From the sequence record OP870145.1: a DNA stretch of 64,000 nucleotides. One strand, given 5' to 3'. This document shows positions 13,138 through 56,146 of the stretch, piece after piece (positions within the stretch are counted from its first letter, which is position 1; each line of letters starts with the position of its first letter). The position numbers were made by a program, and so were the translations under genes. Source of the stretch: Escherichia phage vB_Eco_F26. The notes beneath the pieces were generated by a model that saw only the letters and a program-made list of their open reading frames with translations, did not search any database and was not told where the DNA came from.

Positions 13138-13150
13138 TCTTTGACGATTT

Positions 13151-13183
13151 AAGGGACCTTCGGGTCCCTTTAGTTGTTTTTAT
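13151..13183 (+). terminator. rho-independent terminator after gene 23
   Basis: Hairpin AAGGGACC-TTCG-GGTCCCTT followed by T-run. Confidence 0.75.
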
Positions 13184-13185
13184 GG

Positions 13186-13193
13186 TATAAATA
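13186..13193 (+). promoter_or_regulatory. late promoter (TATAAATA) for gene 24
   Basis: Exact TATAAATA ~28 nt upstream of ATG 13221. Confidence 0.7.
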
Positions 13194-13220
13194 AATCATA
13201 TAAACCAAAAGGAAAGCGCA

Positions 13221-16117: not shown

Positions 16118-17533
16118 TTATGGATAGGTATAGATGATACCAGTTTCTAAAGCAGTTTTATGAATGATGTATCCATTACGCGATTCTTGGACATCAACTT
16201 CTGGATAGTCTTTAATCATCTTCTGAAGAGTGTAACGATGCAGGTAGTATTTACTATCTGGGTCGTCAGTTTTCCAATCTTTACCTTCTTCGGTCATTTT
16301 TTGGATTTCATCCATAACCCACCAACCGCACCAGATATAAGCTGAAGTACGATGTGGAAGAGGATGAACATAAGGTAGTTCACCTTCTGGTTCAATTGGA
16401 GTCCGTTCAGCAATAACAACTTCAGCTGTTGAACTAATTGTCTTTGAAGTGTAATTATCTTTAGTTAATACTGCTTCAACTTTAATTGTATGAGTACCCG
16501 CTGAGGAGGTATCAATACTATAAGTATTAGTAGAATTACTTTCTGCTACGTTGTCTTTCTTCCAAGAGTACACAATATTAGTATCACCAGGAGCACCAGT
16601 AACAGATGCTGTTAAAGTTGCAGTTCCACCAACAGTAGTATTAACTGATGGCGGAGATAAAGAAATGGTGGCACTATTAAATGTCGCATTATTAGTTACT
16701 ACTGTTGCTTCTGCTGAAATTTCTTTTGTAACATAATTTGTTGCAGAAACAGATGCGGTGCATTTAAGAGTTTTACTTCCGACTTCGGTCGGAGTGAATT
16801 TATACGTAGCAGAAGTTGCATCCGGAATATTACTGTCATCCATTGACCATTGGAATGTTATAGTAGCACCTGAAGGTGCACTAGAGACATTTGCAGTTAA
16901 AGTAATAGGAACACCAAAGACTGTAGTCGGAGACTCGGGTGTAATTTTTAGCGTCGAAGAATTAGCCTTTTTATTTACAGTCAAAGAAACCGCTGATGAT
17001 TCTACTGTTTTATCAACGTAATCAGTTGCAGTCACTGTGACAGAGCAAGTTATAGACTTAGTTCCTTCAGTTGTTGGTGTATATTCAAAGGTTGATTGCT
17101 TTTGACCGTCAACATCGACCCCGTCAACTTTCCATGTATAATCAATAGCAGCACCAATAGGTTGATTGCTTACATTAGCAGTGAATGTTGTTGCTGTTCC
17201 AATTTCTACTGCCGCAGGAGAAGCCGGAGTAACAGTGATAGTGGAATTATTTTCTTTCTTATTAACAGTGATAGTTGTTGATGCTTCAGCTATTTCCGGA
17301 TCTCCTGCGGAAAGTGTATTAGTTGCAACCACTTTAATTTTTTTTGTTCCTGCTGGAGAAGCAAGAGTATAATCCATTGTAGCAGCCGTAGAGCCCTGTG
17401 TTATATCATCTACAGTCCAGACGTATGTAATAGTACCGTCTGGGGTTTCACCTGCAGGTGTAGCAGTGAATGTTTGTGAACCTCCAATAACCCCTGTAGG
17501 AGTTAGAGGAGATAACGTGACAGTGAATGCCAT
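16118..17533 (-). CDS. hoc: highly immunogenic outer capsid protein Hoc with four Ig-like repeats
   Basis: 471 aa; four ~90-aa Thr/Ser-rich Ig-like modules then a distinct C-terminal domain (YVHPLP...WCGWWVMDE); position between 24.3 and inh. Confidence 0.8.
   Translation of the reverse strand: MAFTVTLSPLTPTGVIGGSQTFTATPAGETPDGTITYVWTVDDITQGSTAATMDYTLASPAGTKKIKVVATNTLSAGDPEIAEASTTITVNKKENNSTITVTPASPAAVEIGTATTFTANVSNQPIGAAIDYTWKVDGVDVDGQKQSTFEYTPTTEGTKSITCSVTVTATDYVDKTVESSAVSLTVNKKANSSTLKITPESPTTVFGVPITLTANVSSAPSGATITFQWSMDDSNIPDATSATYKFTPTEVGSKTLKCTASVSATNYVTKEISAEATVVTNNATFNSATISLSPPSVNTTVGGTATLTASVTGAPGDTNIVYSWKKDNVAESNSTNTYSIDTSSAGTHTIKVEAVLTKDNYTSKTISSTAEVVIAERTPIEPEGELPYVHPLPHRTSAYIWCGWWVMDEIQKMTEEGKDWKTDDPDSKYYLHRYTLQKMIKDYPEVDVQESRNGYIIHKTALETGIIYTYP
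16400..17500 (-). repeat. tandem Ig-like domain-coding repeats within hoc (four units, approximate extent)
   Basis: Recurring ~90-aa protein modules (...TFTA.../...YTWKVDG.../...ITFQWSMDD.../...IVYSWKKDN...). Confidence 0.6.
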
Positions 17534-18244: not shown

Positions 18245-18273
18245 TAGATATATTTATTACATGGTATTTAGAC

Positions 18274-19785
18274 ATGACTGACATTAAAGTACATTTTTAT
18301 GATTTTAGTCACGTGAGAATTGATTGTGAAGAAAGCACATTTCATGAACTCCGTGATTTCTTTAGCTTTGAAGCTGATGGGTATCGTTTTAACCCTCGCT
18401 TCAGATATGGCAACTGGGATGGACGAATCCGTCTTTTAGATTATAATCGTCTTCTTCCATTCGGTTTAGTCGGGCAAATTAAAAAGTTCTGTGATAACTT
18501 TGGCTATAAAGCCTGGATTGACCCACAGATTAACGAAAAAGAAGAATTATCAAGAAAAGATTTTGATGAATGGCTTTCTAAATTAGAAATCTATTCAGGA
18601 AATAAAAGAATTGAACCACACTGGTATCAAAAAGATGCAGTGTTCGAAGGATTAGTTAATCGTCGTAGAATTCTTAATCTTCCAACATCTGCAGGTAAAT
18701 CGTTAATTCAAGCTCTGCTTGCTCGGTATTATTTGGAAAATTATGAAGGTAAAATTCTTATCATTGTTCCAACAACTGCTCTAACAACTCAGATGGCTGA
18801 TGACTTCGTTGACTATCGTTTATTCAGTCATGCAATGATAAAGAAAATTGGTGGCGGAGCATCAAAAGATGATAAATATAAAAATGATGCACCAGTCGTT
18901 GTTGGTACATGGCAAACTGTAGTAAAACAACCGAAAGAATGGTTCTCACAGTTTGGAATGATGATGAATGATGAATGCCATCTTGCTACAGGAAAAAGTA
19001 TTTCATCTATCATATCAGGTTTAAATAACTGCATGTTTAAATTTGGTCTATCAGGTTCATTACGTGACGGCAAAGCCAATATCATGCAGTATGTTGGAAT
19101 GTTTGGTGAAATATTTAAGCCAGTAACGACCTCTAAATTAATGGAAGATGGACAAGTAACTGAGTTAAAAATTAATAGTATTTTTCTTCGCTATCCCGAT
19201 GAGTTCACTACTAAATTAAAGGGAAAAACTTACCAAGAAGAAATAAAAATTATTACTGGGCTCAGTAAAAGAAATAAATGGATCGCTAAATTAGCTATTA
19301 AGCTTGCACAAAAAGATGAAAACGCTTTTGTCATGTTTAAACATGTATCGCATGGTAAAGCTATTTTCGATTTAATTAAAAATGAATACGATAAAGTTTA
19401 TTACGTATCAGGGGAAGTTGATACCGAAACCCGCAACGTAATGAAAACCTTAGCTGAAAATGGTAAAGGAATAATTATAGTAGCTAGTTATGGTGTATTT
19501 TCTACTGGTATTTCAGTTAAAAATCTGCATCATGTTGTTTTAGCGCACGGCGTTAAATCAAAAATCATTGTATTACAAACAATCGGTCGTGTATTACGTA
19601 AGCATGGTTCTAAGACAATCGCAACTGTCTGGGACCTCATAGATGACGCGGGCGTGGTTTCTAAATCAAAAACATCTTCTAAAAAATACTCGCATTTAAA
19701 CTATCTTTTAAAACATGGACTTGATCGTATTCAGCGTTATGCTGATGAAAAGTTTAATTATGTGATGAAAGAGGTTAAACTTTGA
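18274..19785 (+). CDS. uvsW: UvsW DNA/RNA helicase (SF2)
   Basis: 503 aa; helicase motifs PTSAGKS and DECH; late promoter upstream. Confidence 0.85.
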   Translation: MTDIKVHFYDFSHVRIDCEESTFHELRDFFSFEADGYRFNPRFRYGNWDGRIRLLDYNRLLPFGLVGQIKKFCDNFGYKAWIDPQINEKEELSRKDFDEWLSKLEIYSGNKRIEPHWYQKDAVFEGLVNRRRILNLPTSAGKSLIQALLARYYLENYEGKILIIVPTTALTTQMADDFVDYRLFSHAMIKKIGGGASKDDKYKNDAPVVVGTWQTVVKQPKEWFSQFGMMMNDECHLATGKSISSIISGLNNCMFKFGLSGSLRDGKANIMQYVGMFGEIFKPVTTSKLMEDGQVTELKINSIFLRYPDEFTTKLKGKTYQEEIKIITGLSKRNKWIAKLAIKLAQKDENAFVMFKHVSHGKAIFDLIKNEYDKVYYVSGEVDTETRNVMKTLAENGKGIIIVASYGVFSTGISVKNLHHVVLAHGVKSKIIVLQTIGRVLRKHGSKTIATVWDLIDDAGVVSKSKTSSKKYSHLNYLLKHGLDRIQRYADEKFNYVMKEVKL

Positions 19786-20474
19786 ATTATAAATTAATAT
19801 ATGATAATTTAATTAATAGAGCCCAGAATCGGGCTCGCCTTAATGGATACACTGAAACACATCATATAATTCCTAGATGTATGGGTGGTACAAATGATAA
19901 GTGTAATTTAGTAGAACTAACGGCTGAAGAACATTTTATAGCCCATAAACTTTTAGCTAAAATTCATCCAAATCATTACGGTATAATTAAAGCCGTTATA
20001 TGTATGGGAATGAACTCAAAGACTCATGAAAGACACGTTAATAAATCTTACGCGTGGGAACGTCGTAAAATGGCAGAACTTCAATCCGGCGAAGGTAATC
20101 CATTTTACGGAAAACACCATACGGAAGAACATAAACAATATATGTCAAAACTCATGAAAAGTCGTCCAATTACATGGGGAAATAAAATTAGTAAAACTAA
20201 AAGAATGAACCCAACGAAATGGACTGAAGAAGCTAAAAGATTACATTCAATCAATCAATCGGGTAAAAATAACGGCATGTATGGAAGGAAACATTCCGCT
20301 AAATCTATTCAGAAAATTAAAGATAACATGCCAGATAATTCAGGAGCTAATAACCCAGCTGCTAAACCTATAGAAGTAAATGGTGTTAAATATAAATGTA
20401 TGAAAGATGCTTCTAAAGCTACTGGATTATCAATGTACAAACTAAGAATACTTAGAAAAACAGTTAATTTATAA
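19782..20474 (+). CDS. free-standing HNH homing endonuclease (Mob-like)
   Basis: TTG start overlapping uvsW stop (TTGA) with AGAGG SD; motif YTETHHIIPRCMGG..N..EHFIAH; paralog of ORFs 371..1183 and 47929..48639. Confidence 0.8.
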   Translation: MNYKLIYDNLINRAQNRARLNGYTETHHIIPRCMGGTNDKCNLVELTAEEHFIAHKLLAKIHPNHYGIIKAVICMGMNSKTHERHVNKSYAWERRKMAELQSGEGNPFYGKHHTEEHKQYMSKLMKSRPITWGNKISKTKRMNPTKWTEEAKRLHSINQSGKNNGMYGRKHSAKSIQKIKDNMPDNSGANNPAAKPIEVNGVKYKCMKDASKATGLSMYKLRILRKTVNL

Positions 20475-43570: not shown

Positions 43571-44072
43571 TTAAAAGTATTTTTTAAAACTCATCATAAC
43601 TTTATCATCAACATCATTATCAATCTGTGCAACAAGGTAAGATGACAGTTCTACTTCTTGTGGCGCGGATTGAACATTATCAGAATTAAGATATTCACGA
43701 ATCCAAGGATATGGGTGTTTAACCGGAGCATCGGTAATTGGGCATGGAAGACCACACTGTTTCATACGAGATACAGTTAAGTAATCAATAAAGCTCCACA
43801 TGCTATTTGTATTTAATCCAGGAACATCGCCATCTTTAAATAAATGAACTGCCCAATCTTTTTCTTGGCGGTTAACTTCCATGAAAATATCAACTGCTTC
43901 TTGTTCACACTCTTGAGCAATTTTAACCCATTCATCACCATCAGTACCGGATTGAAGCTGACGAATAATATATTGAGTGCCTTTAAGGTGAAGCTGCTCA
44001 TCACGTGCAATGAACTTCATAATCTTGGCATTACCTTCCATGATTTCCATGTTCTTATGGAAGTTAAAGGTA
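43571..44072 (-). CDS. nrdB: ribonucleotide reductase small subunit NrdB, exon 2 (boundary approximate)
   Basis: In-frame continuation ...FNFHKNMEIMEGNAKI matching R2 proteins; joins exon 1 across a ~598-nt intron. Confidence 0.8.
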
Positions 44073-44670
44073 CCGTTATGTTCGATTGAGCTCGCTAATT
44101 CTCAACCCGTTCTCTTATGAACTGCTACATATTACTATGCAGACCAGACTATATCACAATCCCAGAGGGATTCTCCCCATTTCGAGTCGCTTGACCCTAC
44201 GTCCGAAGACTAGTCGTTGAACCTTGCTTTGCAATTGTCGCCGTGCCATCGTTTATATGTTGATGGTGATAAATCTTTCTTATCACAATATGGACAATTC
44301 AATTGAATTCTATTTGGATTTAATTTACATCTGTCATTATGTTTTAGATAAAATCCAGGACCTTTACCAATGTGACCACAGAAATCACATGTGATTTCTT
44401 TTTGTGCAGGATGGGTCCCGTTCTTAACCATTTCTAATGTTTTTGCTGATGTTCTTTTCTTATGGTCTTCCATCAGAATCTTTAGGTAGGTCCGTTAGCA
44501 TCTATCCAAATTTTTCTATAGTTCAATTGTGCATCCTCTTAAAAGTATAATCATATTATACTAATTAAAGGTGCAAGCAAAACCTTGGCTGCTAGTTTTC
44601 CTATAAAGGACTTTCTAGCAATTAAAGGAGTTTTCGATAAACGTTACCGTTTAAAGGCGCATTTTACGCA
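44073..44670 (-). mobile_element. group I self-splicing intron in nrdB (boundaries approximate)
   Basis: In-frame stop right after FYVSFA; conserved group I elements (GACUAUA / UAGUC); contains I-TevIII remnant ORF; ~598 nt. Confidence 0.7.
44210..44473 (-). CDS. I-TevIII homing endonuclease remnant (zinc-finger domain only)
   Basis: 87 aa with two Cx2C..H..C zinc fingers and no HNH catalytic region; intron-encoded. Confidence 0.7.
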   Translation of the reverse strand: MEDHKKRTSAKTLEMVKNGTHPAQKEITCDFCGHIGKGPGFYLKHNDRCKLNPNRIQLNCPYCDKKDLSPSTYKRWHGDNCKARFND

Positions 44671-45341
44671 AAAGATACATAAAAACGAATAGCTTCTAAG
44701 GCATTAATAACGTGCAAACAGAGGTAAAGAGATTTCATTAAAGCACGTTTAGCTTCGGCTTCTTGTTTAATAGCTCGGTTTAAACGAAAGTCGGCATCAG
44801 GAGATTCTTTAGCTAGTTCTACAAATTCTTTAGCATTTTCCCATTCACGGGTTTTAGTCAGAACATCATCATAATAACGACCGATAGATTCAGCACGTTT
44901 CATAATAGCTTCATCTAATACAATCTCATCAAATACCTTTGACGGATCAGTATAAAGATTTCGCATGATATGAGTATATGACCGACTGTGAATAGTTTCA
45001 CTAAAAGTCCATGTAGCAACCCATGTATCAAGGCTTGGGTCTGAAAGCAATGGCATAAGTACAGCAGACGGCGCACGACCTTGAATACTATCAAGTAATG
45101 ATTGATACTTCAGATTATTAGTAAAAATATTTTGTTGATACTGAGGAAGCTTATTAAACTGTGCAGCATCCATCATTAAGTTAACTTCTTCGGGACGCCA
45201 GAAAAACGAGAGCGAACGTTCAATAAGTTCTTCAAATACTCGATGTCGTTGAATATCATAACGCGCAATTCCAAGACCAGACCCAAAAAACATAGGTTCT
45301 TTTAAAACATCGACCTGTTTAGTATTAAAAACTGTACTCAT
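44671..45341 (-). CDS. nrdB: ribonucleotide reductase small subunit NrdB, exon 1
   Basis: N-terminal R2 sequence ending ...ALEAIRFYVSF(A) followed by in-frame TAA at intron start. Confidence 0.8.
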
Positions 45342-46933
45342 TATTTTGTCCTGTAAACTAAATTTCCACAGTCCCAGATTCTTCTAAGACCATTTGCATA
45401 ACAATTTTCTACTTCAGTTATTGTATCATCATAATTTTTAAGCTTGTTTTTAAGCTTATGTTTCATATAGCTTGAGCGGTGAAATACCTCTCCTTTATCG
45501 ACGTACCAATAACATGGCTCAGAGATATGACTAAATTCCATGACAGAGTCATAAACATTTGATAATGTACTGCACCATCTTCGATTGCCATAAGATAGAC
45601 AATTAATTCCTTTTAATAATTTTGAGGCTCCTCCTACAACACAAATCCCTAATTTTGAACACATCCTTAAAAGTTCATCACCTGAGCTATATCTAGATTT
45701 ACCGATAGAAATAATTTGAACTAACTCATTATTGTAATAAAGTCCTTTATACGTATGAGCTCCTGAGCAAAATCCTTGAAGATGATTCTTATTAATAAAT
45801 TCTTTTGCCTCATCCTTATTAACAAAACGCGCTTTGCATTTTCGGGCTGGTATTCTTTCTGATAATCCTAATTTATGCTTTATAATGGATTTCCAGATCT
45901 CTCTTTTTGTATCATCAATCCATTCATTTTCGAAGATGTGAAGTAATTGAATTCCTTGTGCTTCACACATCTCTGTCTTCATCAAATGATAAGTTTCTTT
46001 AATTTTATCTGTTTCCTTTGACCCGCTAGAATGCCAATAAATTCCATCGTATTCTATAGCCAATTTTTTCTCAGGAATGTAAATATCTAATTCATACGGA
46101 GGAATAATTTTTCTAGTTTCTACGCAATCAAATCCTAGATCTAAAATGAATTGCTCTATAGAACTTTGAGTATAATGAACGTCAATTAGTCCTTTGGATG
46201 AAAGAGCTCTATAAGCCGTCATCCGAGAACAATTTGCTAATTGTTGTAGTTCTTCTATAGAAATTTTGTAATTGATTTTATCTAGTATATCATGATTAAT
46301 ATGACCGTTATTTTTAATAGATTTTCCTATAGATGAATATAACGATGCCTTATATTCTTCAGTCCAATTTAATTTAGTCTTCTTAGATTTTTCGCGAGAT
46401 TTTCGAGAATTCAGAATATCAACTGATTTACCGTTTTCTATAACTTTTCTCGCTTCTTTCACACTTTCTAATTGTGAATTATGCGTTACCCCATATCGTT
46501 TAATTAAAGTTTTTCTATTTTTATTTCTTGAAATTTTTTGATGAGTTGTTCCATATTTTTCTAAAGAATTTTTGCGTTGAAGTTCAGACAAATATTTTTT
46601 ATATTTTTCTTTTCCGCCAAAATTTGTATCACGGCTTTGAATTCTCTTATCCGCGAAAAATATCCCTGAGCAGGATTTACTACATGTTGCTGGAAATACA
46701 CGTTTCTTTGCTGTTTTCAGAGAAATGAAATTTCCACAAACTGCACATTTTAGATCGTTAATGTCAATGCCTTCCATAATTTGGAACACATTGAGCTTAA
46801 AATCTATTCCATCAGTTAGAAGAGCTTTATCTTCTTCTGTTAGTCTAGATTTAAGTTTTTCTTCTCCAAATGGAAGAAACTTTCCGTTTTTGTATATATT
46901 ATCAAACATAGCGTTATTCTTAGTTAACCACAT
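45341..46933 (-). CDS. large free-standing endonuclease-like protein (Zn ribbon + PD-(D/E)xK / Vsr-like core), possible Hef-type homing endonuclease
   Basis: 530 aa; N-terminal CAVCGN...CSKSC; repeated KYG(T/V)TH modules; HTH-like LANCSRMTAYRAL; core ELDIYIPEKKLAIEYDGIYWHSS; Cys-rich C-terminus; sits at the nrdA/nrdB intergenic locus. Confidence 0.55.
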   Translation of the reverse strand: MWLTKNNAMFDNIYKNGKFLPFGEEKLKSRLTEEDKALLTDGIDFKLNVFQIMEGIDINDLKCAVCGNFISLKTAKKRVFPATCSKSCSGIFFADKRIQSRDTNFGGKEKYKKYLSELQRKNSLEKYGTTHQKISRNKNRKTLIKRYGVTHNSQLESVKEARKVIENGKSVDILNSRKSREKSKKTKLNWTEEYKASLYSSIGKSIKNNGHINHDILDKINYKISIEELQQLANCSRMTAYRALSSKGLIDVHYTQSSIEQFILDLGFDCVETRKIIPPYELDIYIPEKKLAIEYDGIYWHSSGSKETDKIKETYHLMKTEMCEAQGIQLLHIFENEWIDDTKREIWKSIIKHKLGLSERIPARKCKARFVNKDEAKEFINKNHLQGFCSGAHTYKGLYYNNELVQIISIGKSRYSSGDELLRMCSKLGICVVGGASKLLKGINCLSYGNRRWCSTLSNVYDSVMEFSHISEPCYWYVDKGEVFHRSSYMKHKLKNKLKNYDDTITEVENCYANGLRRIWDCGNLVYRTK

Positions 46934-46949
46934 CCTTGTGGTAATTATA

Positions 46950-47939
46950 TCATAATTTACAGGATGAACAATCTTCAGCTTTTGGAGTTTCTATTTCATA
47001 ATCATCAGTGCCAGAACCATCGCGGGTATTATGATAATAGAAATTTTTTCCGCCAAAATACCAAAAATACAAAAGGTCATCAATCATTATTGACATTGGA
47101 ACCTTTCCTTTTGGAAAAATCTGCGGGTCATAGTATGTATTCGCTGAAGCTGATTGACATACCCATTTCAGCATAATAGCTACCTGCGTAAGATAAGGTT
47201 TATTACCTTTCTTAGCTAATTTCCATGTATAATCATAGAGGTCTATGTTATGCTCAATATTGGGCACGACTTGATTAAAGGAGCCCTCTTTTGATTCTTT
47301 AACAGAGACTGGTCCACGTGGAGGCTCGATACCGTTTGTACTGTTAGAAACTTGGGAAGATGACTCACATGGCATAAGTGCTGATAATGTGCTATTACGG
47401 ATGCCAAAGAGCTTAAGGTCTTCCCGCAGCGCCGACCAGTCACAAACGTATTTTGGAGCTGCGATTTGGTCAATCTTTTTATTGTACCAGTCGATAGGTA
47501 ATTCGCCTCGAGACCAACGAGTGTCTGAATAATATTCGCAAGGTCCTTTTTCTTTGGCGAGCTTAATGGATGCTTTAATGAGTCCATACTGTAATCTCTC
47601 AAATAGTTCATGTGTTAAATCGTTAGCATCTTCATAAGAAGCAAAGTTGCTTGCCAGCCAAGCTGCATAGTTAGTAACACCTACACCGAGGTTACGACGC
47701 TTTTTAGCTTTTTCTGCTTCAGGAACTGGATATCCTTGATAATCCAAAAGATTATCAAGAGCGCGAACTTGAACTTCTGCCAATTCATTAATTTTATCTT
47801 GGTCTTGCCAATCGAAGTTATCCAGTACGAAGGCAGAGAGAGTACAAAGCCCCACTTCTCCCTTGTTTTCAATAACTTTTATTGTAGTATACTCATCATC
47901 TTCGTAAAATTCATCTACAAATTCATAATCAATATTCAT
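46950..47939 (-). CDS. nrdA: ribonucleotide reductase large subunit NrdA, C-terminal piece
   Basis: 329 aa; aligns to class Ia R1 from ...GEVGLCTLSAF to C-terminal CxxC tail; own ATG overlapping the HNH stop. Confidence 0.8.
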   Translation of the reverse strand: MNIDYEFVDEFYEDDEYTTIKVIENKGEVGLCTLSAFVLDNFDWQDQDKINELAEVQVRALDNLLDYQGYPVPEAEKAKKRRNLGVGVTNYAAWLASNFASYEDANDLTHELFERLQYGLIKASIKLAKEKGPCEYYSDTRWSRGELPIDWYNKKIDQIAAPKYVCDWSALREDLKLFGIRNSTLSALMPCESSSQVSNSTNGIEPPRGPVSVKESKEGSFNQVVPNIEHNIDLYDYTWKLAKKGNKPYLTQVAIMLKWVCQSASANTYYDPQIFPKGKVPMSIMIDDLLYFWYFGGKNFYYHNTRDGSGTDDYEIETPKAEDCSSCKL

Positions 47940-48639
47940 TTAATTCTTCTACCTTTTTTCTAGTAATTCCTAAAGCTTTAGATGCTCGATGTATTGATTG
48001 ATATTCTATACCGTTTATTTTTACAGCAATTAAGTTATGGGGTTTTAATCCCTTTGGATGAGGTTTACTGACGAAAACTAAATTATCAAGCTCTGAAATC
48101 TTATCCAATTTCTTACACTTAAATCCTTTGTGATGCGCCCGTTTACCTTTACAAACGGCTGACATTGCAGATGAATTTAAATTATGCTCTTTACAAAATT
48201 CGTTAAGACCTCGATGAATTTCCTCATGACCATCCGGAAATGTAAACACCCAAGATGTTTGAAGTCGAGATTTAACTTCTGGAGACATAGGAATACCTTT
48301 GTTCCAAGCTGGTTTGCCTTTATTATTTTCAGATACAGAAATAGCCAATTTTCTTCTAAGCCACCCATGGCGTTTATTGGTGTTCTTTCGTTCAATATTA
48401 TCTTCAGAATAAACACACATCATATTAGCGGCAAATATCAATTTATGATTATCTGGATATATCTTTACTAATAATTGATGAGCTATGTAATGCTCTTCTG
48501 GCGTCAAATCTACCAGGTTTTCCTTTGTATCAGAACCACCAATACACAGAGGTATAATATGGTGTGATTCGGTATAGCAATCTAATTTTCTGTTCTTAGC
48601 TTTAGAAATAAGGTTATTGTAAATTTTAGAATAATCCAT
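47929..48639 (-). CDS. free-standing HNH homing endonuclease inserted within nrdA
   Basis: 236 aa; motif YTESHHIIPLCIGG..N..EHYIAH; own SD (GAGGAAAA); paralog of the two + strand HNH genes. Confidence 0.8.
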   Translation of the reverse strand: MDYSKIYNNLISKAKNRKLDCYTESHHIIPLCIGGSDTKENLVDLTPEEHYIAHQLLVKIYPDNHKLIFAANMMCVYSEDNIERKNTNKRHGWLRRKLAISVSENNKGKPAWNKGIPMSPEVKSRLQTSWVFTFPDGHEEIHRGLNEFCKEHNLNSSAMSAVCKGKRAHHKGFKCKKLDKISELDNLVFVSKPHPKGLKPHNLIAVKINGIEYQSIHRASKALGITRKKVEELNEY

Positions 48640-48684
48640 AACTTTTCCTCTTGTTATGGATTATTTATTAACGGTCTGTGTACT

Positions 48685-50118
48685 TTATTTGCTTTGAATT
48701 ATACCGCCAGGATTAGCTTCATAAAACTTAGCTACATCCGACTTCTTAATTTTGATTAAACGGGTTTGTTGGCTATTCACATCATTTGTTGGAATAGCAA
48801 TTTCACAGCACAAGTTACTCTGACGAATAGGTGCCTTTTCACGAATAAACGGAGTATAGTTATTCGTATTATCAATGAACTGCACATAAATCCTTGCTGT
48901 TCCTGATCGTTCAGTCATGAGCAATTCAAACAGTTCACGGGCTTTAATACGCTTTTTACGAATATTAGGGTCTTTTTCTGCGGCTTCGTATAATTCACGG
49001 AAACGGTCTTGGTCTTTAAAATAAGAATAATAAAGTTCGCCACCCATTTCATGCGGACTGAACAAAGTAATGTAATCGTTCTTTCCGAATCGTTCCATCA
49101 TCAAATCATTCAGCTGAACACCATAATCCATGTGACGAATGCGGTTTTCTTCTACGCCTTTGTTATTTTTCAAAACGAGAAGATTTTCAACTTCCAAATG
49201 CCAAATAGGATAATAAGCAGTAGCAGCGCCGCCACGAATTCCACCCTGTGAACATGATTTAACAGCAGTCTGAAAATGTTTCCAAAAAGGAATAACACCA
49301 GTATGGCGTACTTCACCCATGCCAATCTTAGAACCTTCGGCACGAATCATACCAACGTTAATACCAATTCCAGCGCGTTTAGAGATATATTCAACAATTG
49401 AAGCGGAAGCCTTATTGATAGACTTTAATGAATCACCTGCCTCAATAACAACACATGAACTAAACTGTCGAGTCGGAGTACGACAACCAGCCATAATAGG
49501 AGTTGGCAATGAAATCTGTCGAGTAGATACTGCTTCATAAAAACGAATAACATGTTTTAGTCTATCAACAGGTTCATCTTGATGCAATGCCATTCCAATA
49601 GTCATAAATGCAAACTGTGGGGTTTCATAAATTTGACCGGTGGTTTTATCTTTAACTAGATATTTTTCTTTTAATTGCATCGCCCCGGAATAAGTAAATT
49701 CCATATCCCGTTCGTGCTTAATTTTTGATTCTAAAAATGTAATTTCTTCTGCTGAATATTTTGACAATAATTCAGGGTCATATTTACCTTCATTTACACA
49801 GTAAGAAATATGGTCAATAAATGAACGCGGTTCATACTGCCCATAAACATGCTTACGAAGAGCGAACATTAAACAGCGTGCAGCTACATATTGATAATCA
49901 GGTTCTTCAACCGAAATAGAATTCGCAGCAGCCTTAATGACAATAGTCTGAATATCATCAGTTGTCATTCCATCACGGAGATAAGATTTAATATTTTCAT
50001 ATAATTCATAAGGATCTACTGATGTTCCCTCAGCTGCCCAAGATAAAACTTTAATAATTTTTTGTGGGTCAAAGCTCTGAGAAACACCACTACTTTTGAT
50101 AACATTAATTAATTGCAT
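48685..50118 (-). CDS. nrdA: ribonucleotide reductase large subunit NrdA, N-terminal piece
   Basis: 477 aa; class Ia R1 through active-site SNLCCEIAIPTNDVNS, then 28 non-homologous residues and a stop. Confidence 0.85.
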   Translation of the reverse strand: MQLINVIKSSGVSQSFDPQKIIKVLSWAAEGTSVDPYELYENIKSYLRDGMTTDDIQTIVIKAAANSISVEEPDYQYVAARCLMFALRKHVYGQYEPRSFIDHISYCVNEGKYDPELLSKYSAEEITFLESKIKHERDMEFTYSGAMQLKEKYLVKDKTTGQIYETPQFAFMTIGMALHQDEPVDRLKHVIRFYEAVSTRQISLPTPIMAGCRTPTRQFSSCVVIEAGDSLKSINKASASIVEYISKRAGIGINVGMIRAEGSKIGMGEVRHTGVIPFWKHFQTAVKSCSQGGIRGGAATAYYPIWHLEVENLLVLKNNKGVEENRIRHMDYGVQLNDLMMERFGKNDYITLFSPHEMGGELYYSYFKDQDRFRELYEAAEKDPNIRKKRIKARELFELLMTERSGTARIYVQFIDNTNNYTPFIREKAPIRQSNLCCEIAIPTNDVNSQQTRLIKIKKSDVAKFYEANPGGIIQSK

Positions 50119-50435
50119 AAGTCCTCAACTTGAAAATCGTCTTTAAACAATCGGTTAACTATATGAGCTATTATATCACCATGACACGGCTTTGGTTTAC
50201 ATGTGCATCCTAGCCTCATTCCACGTAAAGGCTCTAAATGTGCTTTAGTTATTTCTCCAGATTTAATTCGACGTATAAAATCTTTTTTGAATAATTCAAT
50301 GGCAGCCTCCCGGCTGCCAGCATCTTTACCGACGTAATTTCCCCAAAATGTACCGCGGTGAATATTAACATCAAAGTCGGATTTATATTTATTCACTACC
50401 CGGCATAGACGGCCCACGCTGGAATAATTCTTCAT
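50109..50435 (-). CDS. hypothetical protein (nrdA.1-like, Cys/His motif)
   Basis: 108 aa; [11 protein letters not shown] motif; between td and nrdA. Confidence 0.5.
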
Positions 50436-50652
50436 ATTGTTTTTCCGTTAAAACAGTAATATCGTAGTAACAGTCAGAAGAAGTTTTAACTGTGGAAATT
50501 TTATTATCAAAATACTCACGAGTCATTTTATGAGTATAGTATTTTTTACCATAAATGGTAATAGGCTGTTCTGGTCCTGGAACTTCTAACTCACTTGGGT
50601 TAGGAAGTGTAAAAAGAACAACGCCAGAAGTATCTTTAAATCGTAAAATCAT
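50389..50652 (-). CDS. hypothetical protein (nrdA.2-like)
   Basis: 87 aa ORF between td exon 2 and nrdA.1. Confidence 0.45.
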
Positions 50653-50960
50653 ATTGCCATTTTCCCTTTAATTGCTGGATGCGATTCATAATTTTCAAGG
50701 ATAAAATCTTTCGGTTTCATGTATTCAGTTAACCAGTAAAGCTGTGTTTCGGTGTCACAATTTCCAAACTCTATAGGCCAATCAATTTTAAGTTCACACA
50801 GTTCTTTAGGCTCACGACGTAAAATTTCTTTACATTGCTCAGTATGATTCATATAGATGTGAGTATTACCACCAGAAAATATCAAATCTCCTGGGATAAG
50901 ATTACACATCTTAGCTACAATATGAACTAGTGCAGCATATGATGCAATATTAAACGGTAG
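50649..50960 (-). CDS. td: thymidylate synthase, exon 2
   Basis: Begins [11 protein letters not shown]... immediately after intron 3'-terminal G; 103 aa + stop. Confidence 0.9.
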
Positions 50961-51976
50961 CATTATGTTCAGATAAGGTCGTTAATCTTACCCCGGAATT
51001 ATATCCAGCTACATGTCACCATGCAGAGCAGACTATATCTCCAACTTGTTAAAGCAAGTTGTCTATCGTTTCGAGTCACTTGACCCTACTCCCCAAAGGG
51101 ATAGTCGTTAGGCATTTATGTAGAACCAATTCCATTTATCAGATTTTACACGATAAGTAACTAATCCAGACGAAATTTTAAAATGTCTAGCTGCATCTGC
51201 TGCACAATCAAAAATAACCCCATCACATGAAATCTTTTTAATATTACTAGGCTTTTTACCTTTCATCTTTTCTGATATTTTAGATTTAGTTATGTCTGAA
51301 TGCTTATGATTAAAGAATGAATTATTTTCACCTGAACGATTTCTGCATTTACTGCAAGTATAAGCAGAAGTTTGTATGCGAACACCGCACTTACAAAACT
51401 TATGGGTTTCTGGATTCCAACGCCCGTTTTTACTTCCGGGTTTACTGTAAAGAGCTTTCCGACCATCAGGTCCAAGTTTAAGCATCTTAGCTTTAACAGT
51501 TTCAGAACGTTTCTTAATAATTTCTTCTTTTAATGGATGCGTAGAACATGTATCACCAAACGTTGCATCAGCAATATTGTATCCATTAATTTTAGAATTA
51601 AGCTCTTTAATCCAAAAATTTTCTCGTTCAATAATCAAATCTTTCTCATATGGAATTTCTTCCAAAATAGAACATTCAAACACATTACCATGTTTGTTAA
51701 AAGACCTCTGAAGTTTTATAGAAGAATGGCATCCTTTTTCTAAATCTTTAAAATGCCTCTTCCATCTCTTTTCAAAATCTTTAGCACTTCCTACATATAC
51801 TTTATTGTTTAAAGTATTTTTAATCTGATAAATTCCGCTTTTCATAAATACCTCTTTAAATATAGAAGTATTTATTAAAGGGCAGTCCTACAATTTAGCA
51901 CGGGATTGTCTACTAGAGAGGTTCCCCGTTTAGATAGATTACAAGTATAAGTCACCTTATACTCAGGCCTCAATTA
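50961..51976 (-). mobile_element. td group I self-splicing intron (1016 nt)
   Basis: 5' end UAAUUGAGGCCUGAGUAUAAGGUGACUUAUACUUG..., 3' end ...ACAUAAUG, recognisable as the T4 td intron; contains I-TevI ORF. Confidence 0.9.
51108..51845 (-). CDS. I-TevI GIY-YIG homing endonuclease (intron-encoded)
   Basis: 245 aa; GIY-YIG motif (SGIYQIKN...VYVGSAKDFEKRWKRH); zinc finger CKCG..CSKC; inside td intron. Confidence 0.9.
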   Translation of the reverse strand: MKSGIYQIKNTLNNKVYVGSAKDFEKRWKRHFKDLEKGCHSSIKLQRSFNKHGNVFECSILEEIPYEKDLIIERENFWIKELNSKINGYNIADATFGDTCSTHPLKEEIIKKRSETVKAKMLKLGPDGRKALYSKPGSKNGRWNPETHKFCKCGVRIQTSAYTCSKCRNRSGENNSFFNHKHSDITKSKISEKMKGKKPSNIKKISCDGVIFDCAADAARHFKISSGLVTYRVKSDKWNWFYINA

Positions 51977-52525
51977 ACCCAAGAAAACATCTACTGATCG
52001 TTGATACCACTGAAGGTCAAGGTATCCATTACGAACATTAAATTGATAAAACATATGACAAGGCGGTAATGCCATCTGCTTGAGTTCAGCTGGATTCCAT
52101 GCTGAAACGATTTGACGTCGATCAGTTGGTAATTTTTTAATACGATCAATAGTTTCAACTAATTGATCCACACCACCGAAATCACGCCATTGTTTACCGT
52201 ATATAGGACCAAGTTCACCACTATGGTATCCTAAATCTTTTGCTTGATTTTCGTAATTTTCATCCCAGACTGTTTTGCCTTGGATTAACGAATCATGCTG
52301 AATTAATCGTAAATCATTGACATTTGTGCTTCCTGATAAAAACCATATTAACTCAGAAATGCAAGCTTTCCAGGCGAGCTTTTTAGTTGTTACTGCAGGA
52401 AAACCTTTGGTTAAATCCCAACGCAATTTAGTACCGAACAAAGCAATTGTTCCTGTGCCTGTTCGGTCATCAGTTTCATAGCCATTTTCAAAAATGTCTT
52501 TAATTAAATCTTGGTATTGTTTCAT
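51977..52525 (-). CDS. td: thymidylate synthase, exon 1
   Basis: 183 aa N-terminal TS ending ...VDVFLG before intron; exon1+exon2 = 286 aa as T4 TS. Confidence 0.9.
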
Positions 52526-52566: not shown

Positions 52567-52914
52567 TTAATATGGTTTAGCATCAAATTTTCTCTCAATT
52601 TCAGGCGTGAAATATAATTCTTTACCGCGTTTGGAAAAACGACCAATAATATGATAATTATTCTCATCAAACGTGATATTACCAATATCCATAGCTTTCA
52701 ACCAAATATCGATATTTCTATCCAGCTTTATGTCAAAATTCCAATACGGAGAACTATTACCGAAAATACTGCAAGCGGATTCAGTGAAACAACTGCTATA
52801 AATCTTATCTTTGGGAACTACTAATTGATAGACGCCTTTAATAAACTGAGGACCCTGCCATTTTGGTTGTTTCGCGTCTTTTTCTAATAGAATAGGGTAA
52901 TAATTAAAATTCAT
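52567..52914 (-). CDS. hypothetical protein inserted between frd and td
   Basis: 115 aa ORF with no recognisable motifs; fills a 408-bp gap where T4 frd and td overlap. Confidence 0.5.
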   Translation of the reverse strand: MNFNYYPILLEKDAKQPKWQGPQFIKGVYQLVVPKDKIYSSCFTESACSIFGNSSPYWNFDIKLDRNIDIWLKAMDIGNITFDENNYHIIGRFSKRGKELYFTPEIERKFDAKPY

Positions 52915-52933: not shown

Positions 52934-53760
<827 letters not shown>

Positions 53761-56047: not shown

Positions 56048-56146
56048 TTTTATTTCCTTTTTAATTTAATTAACAGTTGGTGCTATGACGATGTATGACC
56101 TCATAGCTGGTCAGTGAGATAATTATAATCTATTTATAATAAGCAA

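Follow-up and report, generated by a model that had tools for sequence, protein, structure and literature searches.

Four endonuclease elements in the ribonucleotide reductase and thymidylate synthase genes of Escherichia phage vB_Eco_F26, including a split nrdA of the Aeh1 type

We analyzed a stretch of 64,000 nucleotides from Escherichia phage vB_Eco_F26 (sequence record OP870145.1; referred to as the window), in which the genes for ribonucleotide reductase (RNR; nrdA and nrdB) and thymidylate synthase (td) are accompanied by genes for endonucleases. A previous annotation made from the letters alone (the sequence-only reading) had placed four endonuclease elements in approximately 8 kb of this locus: a remnant of I-TevIII, an open reading frame (ORF) of 530 amino acids, an HNH gene inside nrdA, and I-TevI. 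All four were found within 44074-51976, on the minus strand, and the identifications proved essentially right, with the 530-amino acid ORF corresponding to Hef; the limits given to the cluster also fit the introns, as nrdB exon 2 begins at 44073, adjoining the outer end of the nrdB intron (44074), and the td intron extends outward to 51976. A 12-kb query matched over 1000 phage records, with Escherichia phages FL23 and FL44 (97.7% identity, 100% coverage) and Salmonella phage Manna as the top matches. All three belong to the genus Tequatrovirus, to which the window can be assigned on these matches as a near relative of T4. It corresponded to approximately 94.2-156.0 kb of T4, most of it being 94-98% identical (colinear blastn against T4 88000-160000), and the T4 gene order (denA, nrdB, nrdA, nrdA.1, nrdA.2, td, and frd, all on the minus strand) was retained. 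What was observed directly comprises the identities and boundaries of the elements, their domains, the mosaicism of the locus, and its distribution in related phages; the features of the locus were as follows (with the evidence in parentheses).

43571-44073, minus strand: nrdB exon 2 (Pfam Ribonuc_red_sm; 98.0% nucleotide identity to T4)
44074-44665, minus strand: nrdB group I intron, 592 nt, 598 nt in T4 (T4 alignment, Rfam)
44210-44473, minus strand: I-TevIII remnant ORF, 87 amino acids (T4 I-TevIII match, phrog_12324)
44666-45341, minus strand: nrdB exon 1 (Pfam Ribonuc_red_sm)
45341-46933, minus strand: hef, for the free-standing homing endonuclease Hef, 530 amino acids (identity to U5 Hef, phrog_3339)
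46950-47939, minus strand: nrdA-b, C-terminal piece of the RNR large subunit, 329 amino acids (T4 NrdA alignment)
47847-48770, minus strand: whole cassette of tail, spacer, HNH gene, and head, 924 bp (blastn colinear map against T4)
47929-48639, minus strand: MobE-like HNH homing endonuclease gene, 236 amino acids (Pfam, phrog_655, MobE alignments)
48685-50118, minus strand: nrdA-a, N-terminal piece of the RNR large subunit, 477 amino acids (T4 NrdA alignment, Pfam)
50649-50960, minus strand: td exon 2 (spliced product; 76.0% nucleotide identity to T4)
50961-51976, minus strand: td group I intron, 1016 nt (T4 alignment, Rfam)
51108-51845, minus strand: I-TevI, intron-encoded GIY-YIG homing endonuclease (T4 identity, Pfam)
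51977-52525, minus strand: td exon 1 (90.3% nucleotide identity to T4; ends ...VDVFLG just before the TAA of the intron)

The nrdA gene, which is uninterrupted in T4, was divided by the cassette, which had no T4 counterpart, took the place of 20 bp of T4 nrdA, and had a G+C content of 32.6% versus 37.9% in the nrdA flanks. NrdA-a consisted of residues 1-449 of T4 NrdA (99.8% identical) followed by a basic C-terminal tail of 28 amino acids, and contained the ATP-cone, all-alpha, and barrel domains of Pfam; NrdA-b consisted of an acidic N-terminal head of 26 amino acids followed by residues 452-754 of T4 NrdA (its own residues 27-329; 96.4% identical). Neither the tail nor the head was present in T4 NrdA. 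The split point, after ...NLCCEIAIPTNDVNS and before GEVGLCTLSAF, divided the Pfam barrel domain into profile positions 1-221 and 219-523. A stop codon ends the first piece and is followed by a spacer of 45 nt, which contains a GAGG ribosome-binding site, and then by the HNH ORF, the end of which was overlapped by the new ATG of nrdA-b by 11 nt.

The protein encoded by this ORF matched I-HmuI_NUMOD-like (E = 9e-10) and, below the cutoff, HNH (E = 0.0026) in Pfam, and also phrog_655 (E = 1e-58). It was 44.5% identical to MobE of phage Aeh1 over the full length, which was the closest full-length relative outside Tequatrovirus among 50,697 phage records, and 45% identical to T4 MobE over residues 1-129. 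The HNH motif (HHIIP..GGSD.KENLV.LT..EH.IAH) was intact, and HHIIPLCIGGSDTKENLVDLTPEEHYIAH could be aligned at every residue with MobE of both T4 and Aeh1; by this alignment, the protein has the N-terminal HNH motif of the MobE type.

The sequence-only reading was correct in putting an HNH gene inside nrdA, and the gene appeared to be free-standing, breaking nrdA into two genes as neither an intron nor an intein. If the gene belonged instead to a self-splicing intron or an intein, a single NrdA would be restored by splicing; HNH-bearing introns and inteins do interrupt RNR genes in other phages (PMC3653736), and a degenerate-intein origin for the tails was raised by Crona et al. in 2011 (PMC3045599). 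However, no group I intron signal was detected in 47780-48830 even at E values up to 10, while both of the true introns were, and no intein or Hint domain was found with Pfam in NrdA-a, NrdA-b, or the HNH protein. The frame of nrdA-a stops after the 28-amino acid tail, a separate ribosome-binding site precedes the HNH ORF, and nrdA-b starts at an ATG of its own, an architecture shared with Aeh1, in which two separate polypeptides were demonstrated (PMC3045599). The intron and intein readings of the insert were rejected on the lack of an intron signal, the lack of an intein domain, and the in-frame stop codon, and restoration of one NrdA by splicing is considered extremely unlikely.

The nrdA-a/mobE/nrdA-b arrangement of Aeh1, known as a "genes-in-pieces" RNR, was reportedly described by Friedrich et al. 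in 2007. The three-gene layout of F26 was the same, with 477, 236, and 329 amino acids versus 473 (nrdA-A), 237 (mobE), and 323 (nrdA-B) in Aeh1, a spacer of 45 versus 46 nt, and an overlap of 11 versus 14 nt. The split point, between the equivalents of E. coli Cys439 and Cys462, was also shared, and the HNH proteins were alignable over their full length. The NrdA-a tail, QQTRLIKIKKSDVAKFYEANPGGIIQSK, aligned with ...KMLFKVKKSEVDKFKL... of Aeh1, the core being "LIKIKKSDVAKF" here and "LFKVKKSEVDKF" in Aeh1, and the NrdA-b head, MNIDYEFVDEFYEDDEYTTIKVIENK, aligned with the Aeh1 head MIEHERIYEVYEDEEYTTVEIEVDVS, with the cores "FYEDDEYTTI" and "VYEDEEYTTV", respectively. The two phages thus had in common a basic tail, L-[IF]-K-[IV]-K-K-S-[DE]-V-x-K-F, and an acidic head, [FV]-Y-E-D-[DE]-E-Y-T-T-[IV], with net charges of +4 (tail) and -7 (head) here and +6 and -9 in Aeh1. 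On these comparisons, F26 nrdA can be classed with the Aeh1 type, having a split in the barrel between the active-site cysteines, two ORFs, and tails that appear to derive from the element. On the other hand, identity was only 44.5% for the endonucleases, and 58% and 49% for the NrdA pieces; Aeh1 belongs to the genus Cinqassovirus, not Tequatrovirus, and its nrd genes are located elsewhere in the genome (41.5-44.6 kb) without an adjoining hef or introns. The split RNR of Aeh1 was fully active as (NrdA-a/NrdA-b)2 NrdB2, and the tails were essential (PMC3045599); assembly of such an active enzyme is predicted for the coliphage version.

The coliphage version of split nrdA was found in 34 records of the phage collection (approximately 27 genomes), which fell into two allele groups approximately 10% apart, and the HNH gene was always next to nrdA. 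A search of homologous proteins and of a representative library of 1.84 billion proteins with the 71-amino acid head region yielded only one head-containing fragment (73 amino acids), a poor yield because the query was short and acidic, with residues 1-17 masked by BLAST. An insertion that physically breaks nrdA between its active-site cysteines might have killed the gene, in which case the pieces would be decaying and the phage would rely on a host or anaerobic RNR. However, both pieces were intact ORFs with the protein identities to T4 NrdA given above, the 34 records in both allele groups showed the split arrangement without frameshifts, and the tail and head motifs were conserved with Aeh1 despite endonucleases of only 44% identity. 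This conservation argues for selection on the tails, and loss of nrdA by insertion appears to be very unlikely.

Hef of phage U5 is said to have been described by Sandegren, Nord, and Sjoberg in 2005. The 530-amino acid ORF of F26 was 98.9% identical over 530 amino acids to the protein annotated as "hef: Hef" in U5 (AY262133.2) and matched phrog_3339 (E = 6e-152). It occupied the slot of mobE and nrdB.1, which lie between nrdA and nrdB in T4, replacing T4 139721-140402; hef of U5 is likewise located between nrdA and nrdB, and has the same one-base overlap of its stop codon with the nrdB start. From this identity and the same flanking genes, the ORF can be identified as a U5-type Hef. U5 differed in that its nrdB intron contains a full-length I-TevIII and its annotated hef start is 42 nt further upstream, at an ATG that reads AAG in the window. 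The same upstream ATG (46933-46975, minus strand) underlies the 544-amino acid annotation in U5 and FL23; with AAG in its place, the first available start gives 530 amino acids, as annotated in Manna, which suggests that the shorter form is the real protein. Hef was present at an identity of at least 95% in 16 records (14 genomes) of the phage collection.

Hef is a homing endonuclease that takes the place of mobE and cleaves nrdB (2010 review, PMC2988022), and enzymes of this type have been assigned to the Vsr-like EDxHD family (PMC3239194). The sole sequence match of F26 Hef in the PDB was I-Bth0305I (3r3p), to which amino acids 272-353, the central nuclease region, were weakly similar (E = 0.03), and the Pfam match to REase_MTES_1575 was also weak (21.7 bits, under the 38.2-bit cutoff). 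With this family placement and the two matches, the "PD-(D/E)xK-like" label in the sequence-only reading was reasonable. I-Bth0305I differs in being encoded by an intron in recA of a Bacillus phage, while Hef is free-standing, has approximately double the length, and contains at its C-terminal end a conserved region without an assigned function. This C-terminal third (amino acids 355-530; 45341-45880, minus strand) matched no Pfam family and no solved structure, and was conserved in many phage homologues, some of which are annotated as "nuclease/acetyltransferase".

The nrdB intron was 97.0% identical to that of T4 (582/600). Its boundaries, with U as the final base of the 5' exon and G as the final base of the intron, restored the frame once the intron was removed, and the splice junction, ...RFYVSFA/CTFNFHKNMEIMEG, was exactly that of T4 (...YVSFA/CTFNF). 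The score for Intron_gpI of Rfam was 34.0 bits versus 35.7 bits for the T4 control intron. The gathering score of this family is 50 bits, and no match was found at gathering thresholds in the whole window; the introns, including the T4 controls, appeared only at relaxed thresholds, because the endonuclease ORFs interrupt the Rfam model. In one stem, CUGCAUA-GUAA-UAUGUAG replaced CUGCAUG-GUAA-CAUGCAG of T4, and this compensatory change argues that the fold of the intron RNA is maintained. By its predicted core fold, its U and G boundaries, and the restored frame, the element can be classified as a group I intron, and its 97% identity to the T4 intron suggests that it self-splices.

The ORF in the nrdB intron was 97.7% identical to residues 11-97 of the defective 97-amino acid I-TevIII of T4 and covered only positions 184-269 of phrog_12324, a 269-amino acid full-length profile; it matched no Pfam family. 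Only the C-terminal zinc-finger/DNA-binding part was kept, the HNH catalytic part being deleted. The internal deletion is common to T4, and an extra 2-nt deletion in F26 removes the upstream start codon used in T4. The full-length gene in RB3, U5, and many other phages is approximately 0.5 kb longer (474 nt in U5). By comparison with the active form of RB3 (approximately 269 amino acids), the ORF can be regarded as a remnant and not a working HNH homing endonuclease. In T4, defunct I-TevIII is mobilized in trans by MobE, with co-conversion of up to approximately 2 kb (PMC2790892).

The td intron (1014/1017 identical to T4, 99.7%) starts with TAATTGAGGCCTGAG and ends with ...AACATAATG (...ATAATG), both as in T4, and joining 51977 to 50960 gave a thymidylate synthase of 286 amino acids with the T4 junction ...VDVFLG/LPFNIASYA. 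It matched Intron_gpI over the full model (37.3 bits, E = 1.2e-7; 40.3 bits for the self-splicing T4 control). This intron can also be assigned to group I on its predicted core fold, restoration of the frame, and terminal G, and its near identity to the T4 intron suggests self-splicing. I-TevI inside it was identical to the T4 protein (245/245), and its GIY-YIG (66.8 bits), I-TevI_ZnF (73.4 bits), and I-TevI_DNA-bd (110.5 bits) domains all scored above the Pfam cutoffs, as expected for a GIY-YIG homing endonuclease. In the distal (3') half of td exon 2 (50649-50800, minus strand), DNA identity to T4 was approximately 55-70%, and the encoded C-terminus differed substantially.

Two more intact Mob-type HNH genes were found in the window, at 371-1183 and 19782-20474, and no further endonuclease genes were found there using a T4 colinearity map and tblastn with 12 endonuclease queries. 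The former (plus strand) encodes 270 amino acids (phrog_655; Pfam HNH_4) on an 810-bp segment between genes 13 and 14 that is absent from T4, and the C-terminal part of its product is similar to the zinc-finger regions of I-TevIII and T4 nrdB.1. The latter (plus strand) encodes 230 amino acids with NUMOD3 motifs between uvsW and uvsW.1, is also absent from T4, and has a C-terminus that shares 32% identity with the DNA-binding end of I-TevI. The 64-kb window thus held six elements, four of them within 7.9 kb (fixed-window binomial p = 0.003), while a scan statistic for four of six elements within 7.1-7.9 kb gave p = 0.056-0.074; for the T4 cluster (three of the 15 elements, in 5.3 kb), the scan p was 0.63. 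Density in the window alone was only marginally non-random because of the two HNH genes that lie elsewhere, and the claim of a hotspot for selfish elements, made in the sequence-only reading, therefore rests on occupancy, mosaicism, and the distribution in T4.

Among approximately 650 T4-like records, the td intron was present in 197, the nrdB intron in 116, split nrdA in 34, and Hef in 16, i.e., 18-30% for the introns, approximately 5% for split nrdA, and approximately 2.5% for Hef. Hef and split nrdA occurred together in 4 records versus approximately 0.8-1.0 expected (p approximately 0.01; records not phylogenetically independent), and FL23, FL44, and Manna were the only records with all four elements among the matches of the 12-kb query. 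Compared with T4, the locus was also mosaic, with 99.7% identity in the td intron between exons of 90.3 and 76.0%, and 97.0% in the nrdB intron, next to 98.0% in exon 2 and 85.0% in exon 1. In addition, the nrdA-nrdB slot was filled by different nuclease families, mobE in T4 and hef in F26. Five of the 15 endonuclease genes of T4 are located in or beside td, nrdA, nrdB, nrdD, and nrdG, which make up approximately 4% of the genome (P = 2e-4, calculated here with gene positions from the table in PMC2988022), and the T4 literature describes RNR and td genes as repeated targets (PMC2988022; PMC3045599; PMC3653736).

These data support the reading of the locus as a likely hotspot for invasion by selfish elements, by the occupancy in relatives, mosaicism, and the literature; the part of the claim that concerned local enrichment stood only marginally in the window itself. 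The clustering might instead be due to chance, with endonuclease genes scattered in T4-like genomes and the locus not specially prone to invasion, and the scan statistics of F26 and T4, together with the two HNH genes elsewhere in the window, are in line with this. The fixed-window binomial, the distribution of the T4 genes, the sharing of one slot by the unrelated nucleases mobE and hef, and the same nrdA site having been struck in Aeh1 and in Tequatrovirus point the other way, and we consider chance unlikely, though not negligible.

Three of the four elements were near-identical to characterized ones, and the fourth was a split nrdA of the Aeh1 type, which has not been formally described in a coliphage. 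Since each falls in an already studied family, the locus is a rare combination of known parts and no new system. Overall, the RNR and td genes of F26 very probably carry four independent homing elements from three nuclease families, all of kinds characterized in T-even phages. Several points weigh against this interpretation. The Pfam HNH score of the nrdA-borne gene was 18.3 bits versus a cutoff of 21.4 bits, the Vsr-like similarity of Hef was weak (E = 0.03), and the local density was only marginally non-random (p approximately 0.06), with two more HNH genes elsewhere. Furthermore, nrdB exon 1 was not U5-like throughout (88% identity to U5 versus 85% to T4), and a clean co-conversion tract linked to hef was therefore not visible. 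Splicing, cleavage specificity, RNR assembly, and Hef-driven mobilization of the nrdB intron are attributed to F26 by analogy with relatives.

On this interpretation, the td intron would self-splice, and I-TevI would cut an intron-less td in a mixed infection, into which the intron would be copied. In nrdA, the MobE-like HNH gene has been inserted between the codons equivalent to Cys439 and Cys462 of E. coli, giving two genes that would be translated separately, and the cassette supplies the basic tail of NrdA-a and the acidic head of NrdA-b, tails of the type essential for the Aeh1 enzyme. The HNH protein would presumably target an intact nrdA at the insertion site (of the T4 type, around ...AATGATGTGAATAGCCCTGATGCTGAAATTGG...). 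Hef would cleave nrdB of phages that lack hef and spread with flanking DNA. The nrdB intron would still splice, and the intron with its dead I-TevIII probably persists by hitch-hiking on gene conversion initiated by a neighbor; Hef may keep it circulating here, a role that MobE has in T4. Clustering of this kind would follow a known rule, namely, that the targets of homing endonucleases are conserved stretches within conserved genes, with elements within approximately 2 kb of each other being co-converted.

The sequence-only reading had also raised possible effects of the elements on the regulation of deoxynucleoside triphosphate synthesis. No sequence evidence for such an effect was found in promoter and terminator scans: the counts of sigma-70 promoters and terminators equaled the shuffled expectation, and MotA-box and late-promoter (TATAAATA) patterns were at or near it, with no site just upstream of nrdB. 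The elements might nevertheless be kept for a benefit to the phage, such as exclusion of the markers of competitors during co-infection or tuning of NrdA/NrdB stoichiometry, and not be purely selfish. The middle promoter of nrdB in T4 is located in the mobE-nrdB intergenic segment (PMC2988022), which is replaced in F26 by hef, the stop codon of which overlaps the nrdB start; moreover, it has been discussed that a terminator inside mobE may modulate the amount of nrdB transcript (PMC2988022). However, each element was absent from most close relatives, as the occupancies above indicate, the scans gave nothing above chance, and the insertion in Aeh1 was described as phenotypically neutral (PMC3045599), so that retention for such a benefit is regarded as quite unlikely.

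One further feature of the locus had been described as an unexplained insert between frd and td:

52567-52914, minus strand: conserved T-even gene between frd and td, 115 amino acids (phrog_1928; no Pfam family)

This description did not hold. The gene was carried by 362 phage records, including T2, RB14, and RB7, at an identity of at least 90%, and Klebsiella T4-like phages had syntenic homologues of approximately 31% identity in their frd-td interval. It is an ordinary conserved T-even gene, neither an endonuclease nor an insert, with T4 being the exception in lacking it. Apart from this gene, the slot between nrdA and nrdB, and the divided nrdA, the locus resembled that of T4 in gene order and strand, the identical I-TevI, the td intron, and the same deleted I-TevIII in the nrdB intron. 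The free-standing GIY-YIG genes segD, segE, and segG of T4 were absent at their T4 positions (13149-13208, 18261-18279, and 56111-56145), where short intergenic gaps were left. An 81-amino acid ORF (phrog_3183, function unassigned) was located at 53515-53760 (minus strand) on a segment of approximately 200 bp between frd and frd.1 that is absent from T4, and hoc (16118-17533, minus strand) encoded 471 amino acids with Ig and PKD matches versus 376 in T4, with a middle part that could not be aligned with T4. A search of NCBIfam added no information.

The biology of these elements is well known, and current understanding is unchanged. The analysis provides proper names (nrdA-a, nrdA-b, mobE-like gene, hef, and defunct I-TevIII) for ORFs in F26 and approximately 30 related coliphages; the ORFs renamed are two called "ribonucleotide reductase alpha subunit", the 530-amino acid "hypothetical protein", and the 87-amino acid ORF. 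The locus illustrates the stacking of several homing elements within co-conversion distance. Conservation of the tails in two distant phage lineages supports the view that they are part of the mobile element and under selection, and with the coliphages the re-assembly model of Aeh1 RNR could be tested conveniently in E. coli. We lean slightly toward the cassette being a portable module, i.e., an endonuclease with its own oppositely charged tails that re-assemble the broken protein, homing to one nrdA codon in Aeh1 and Tequatroviruses; together with Hef, the nrdB-td block could then co-convert as one selfish unit. If this is true, splitting and re-assembly by element-borne tails would be a heritable third way of neutralizing an insertion, beside introns and inteins, and the split of Aeh1 would not be a one-off.

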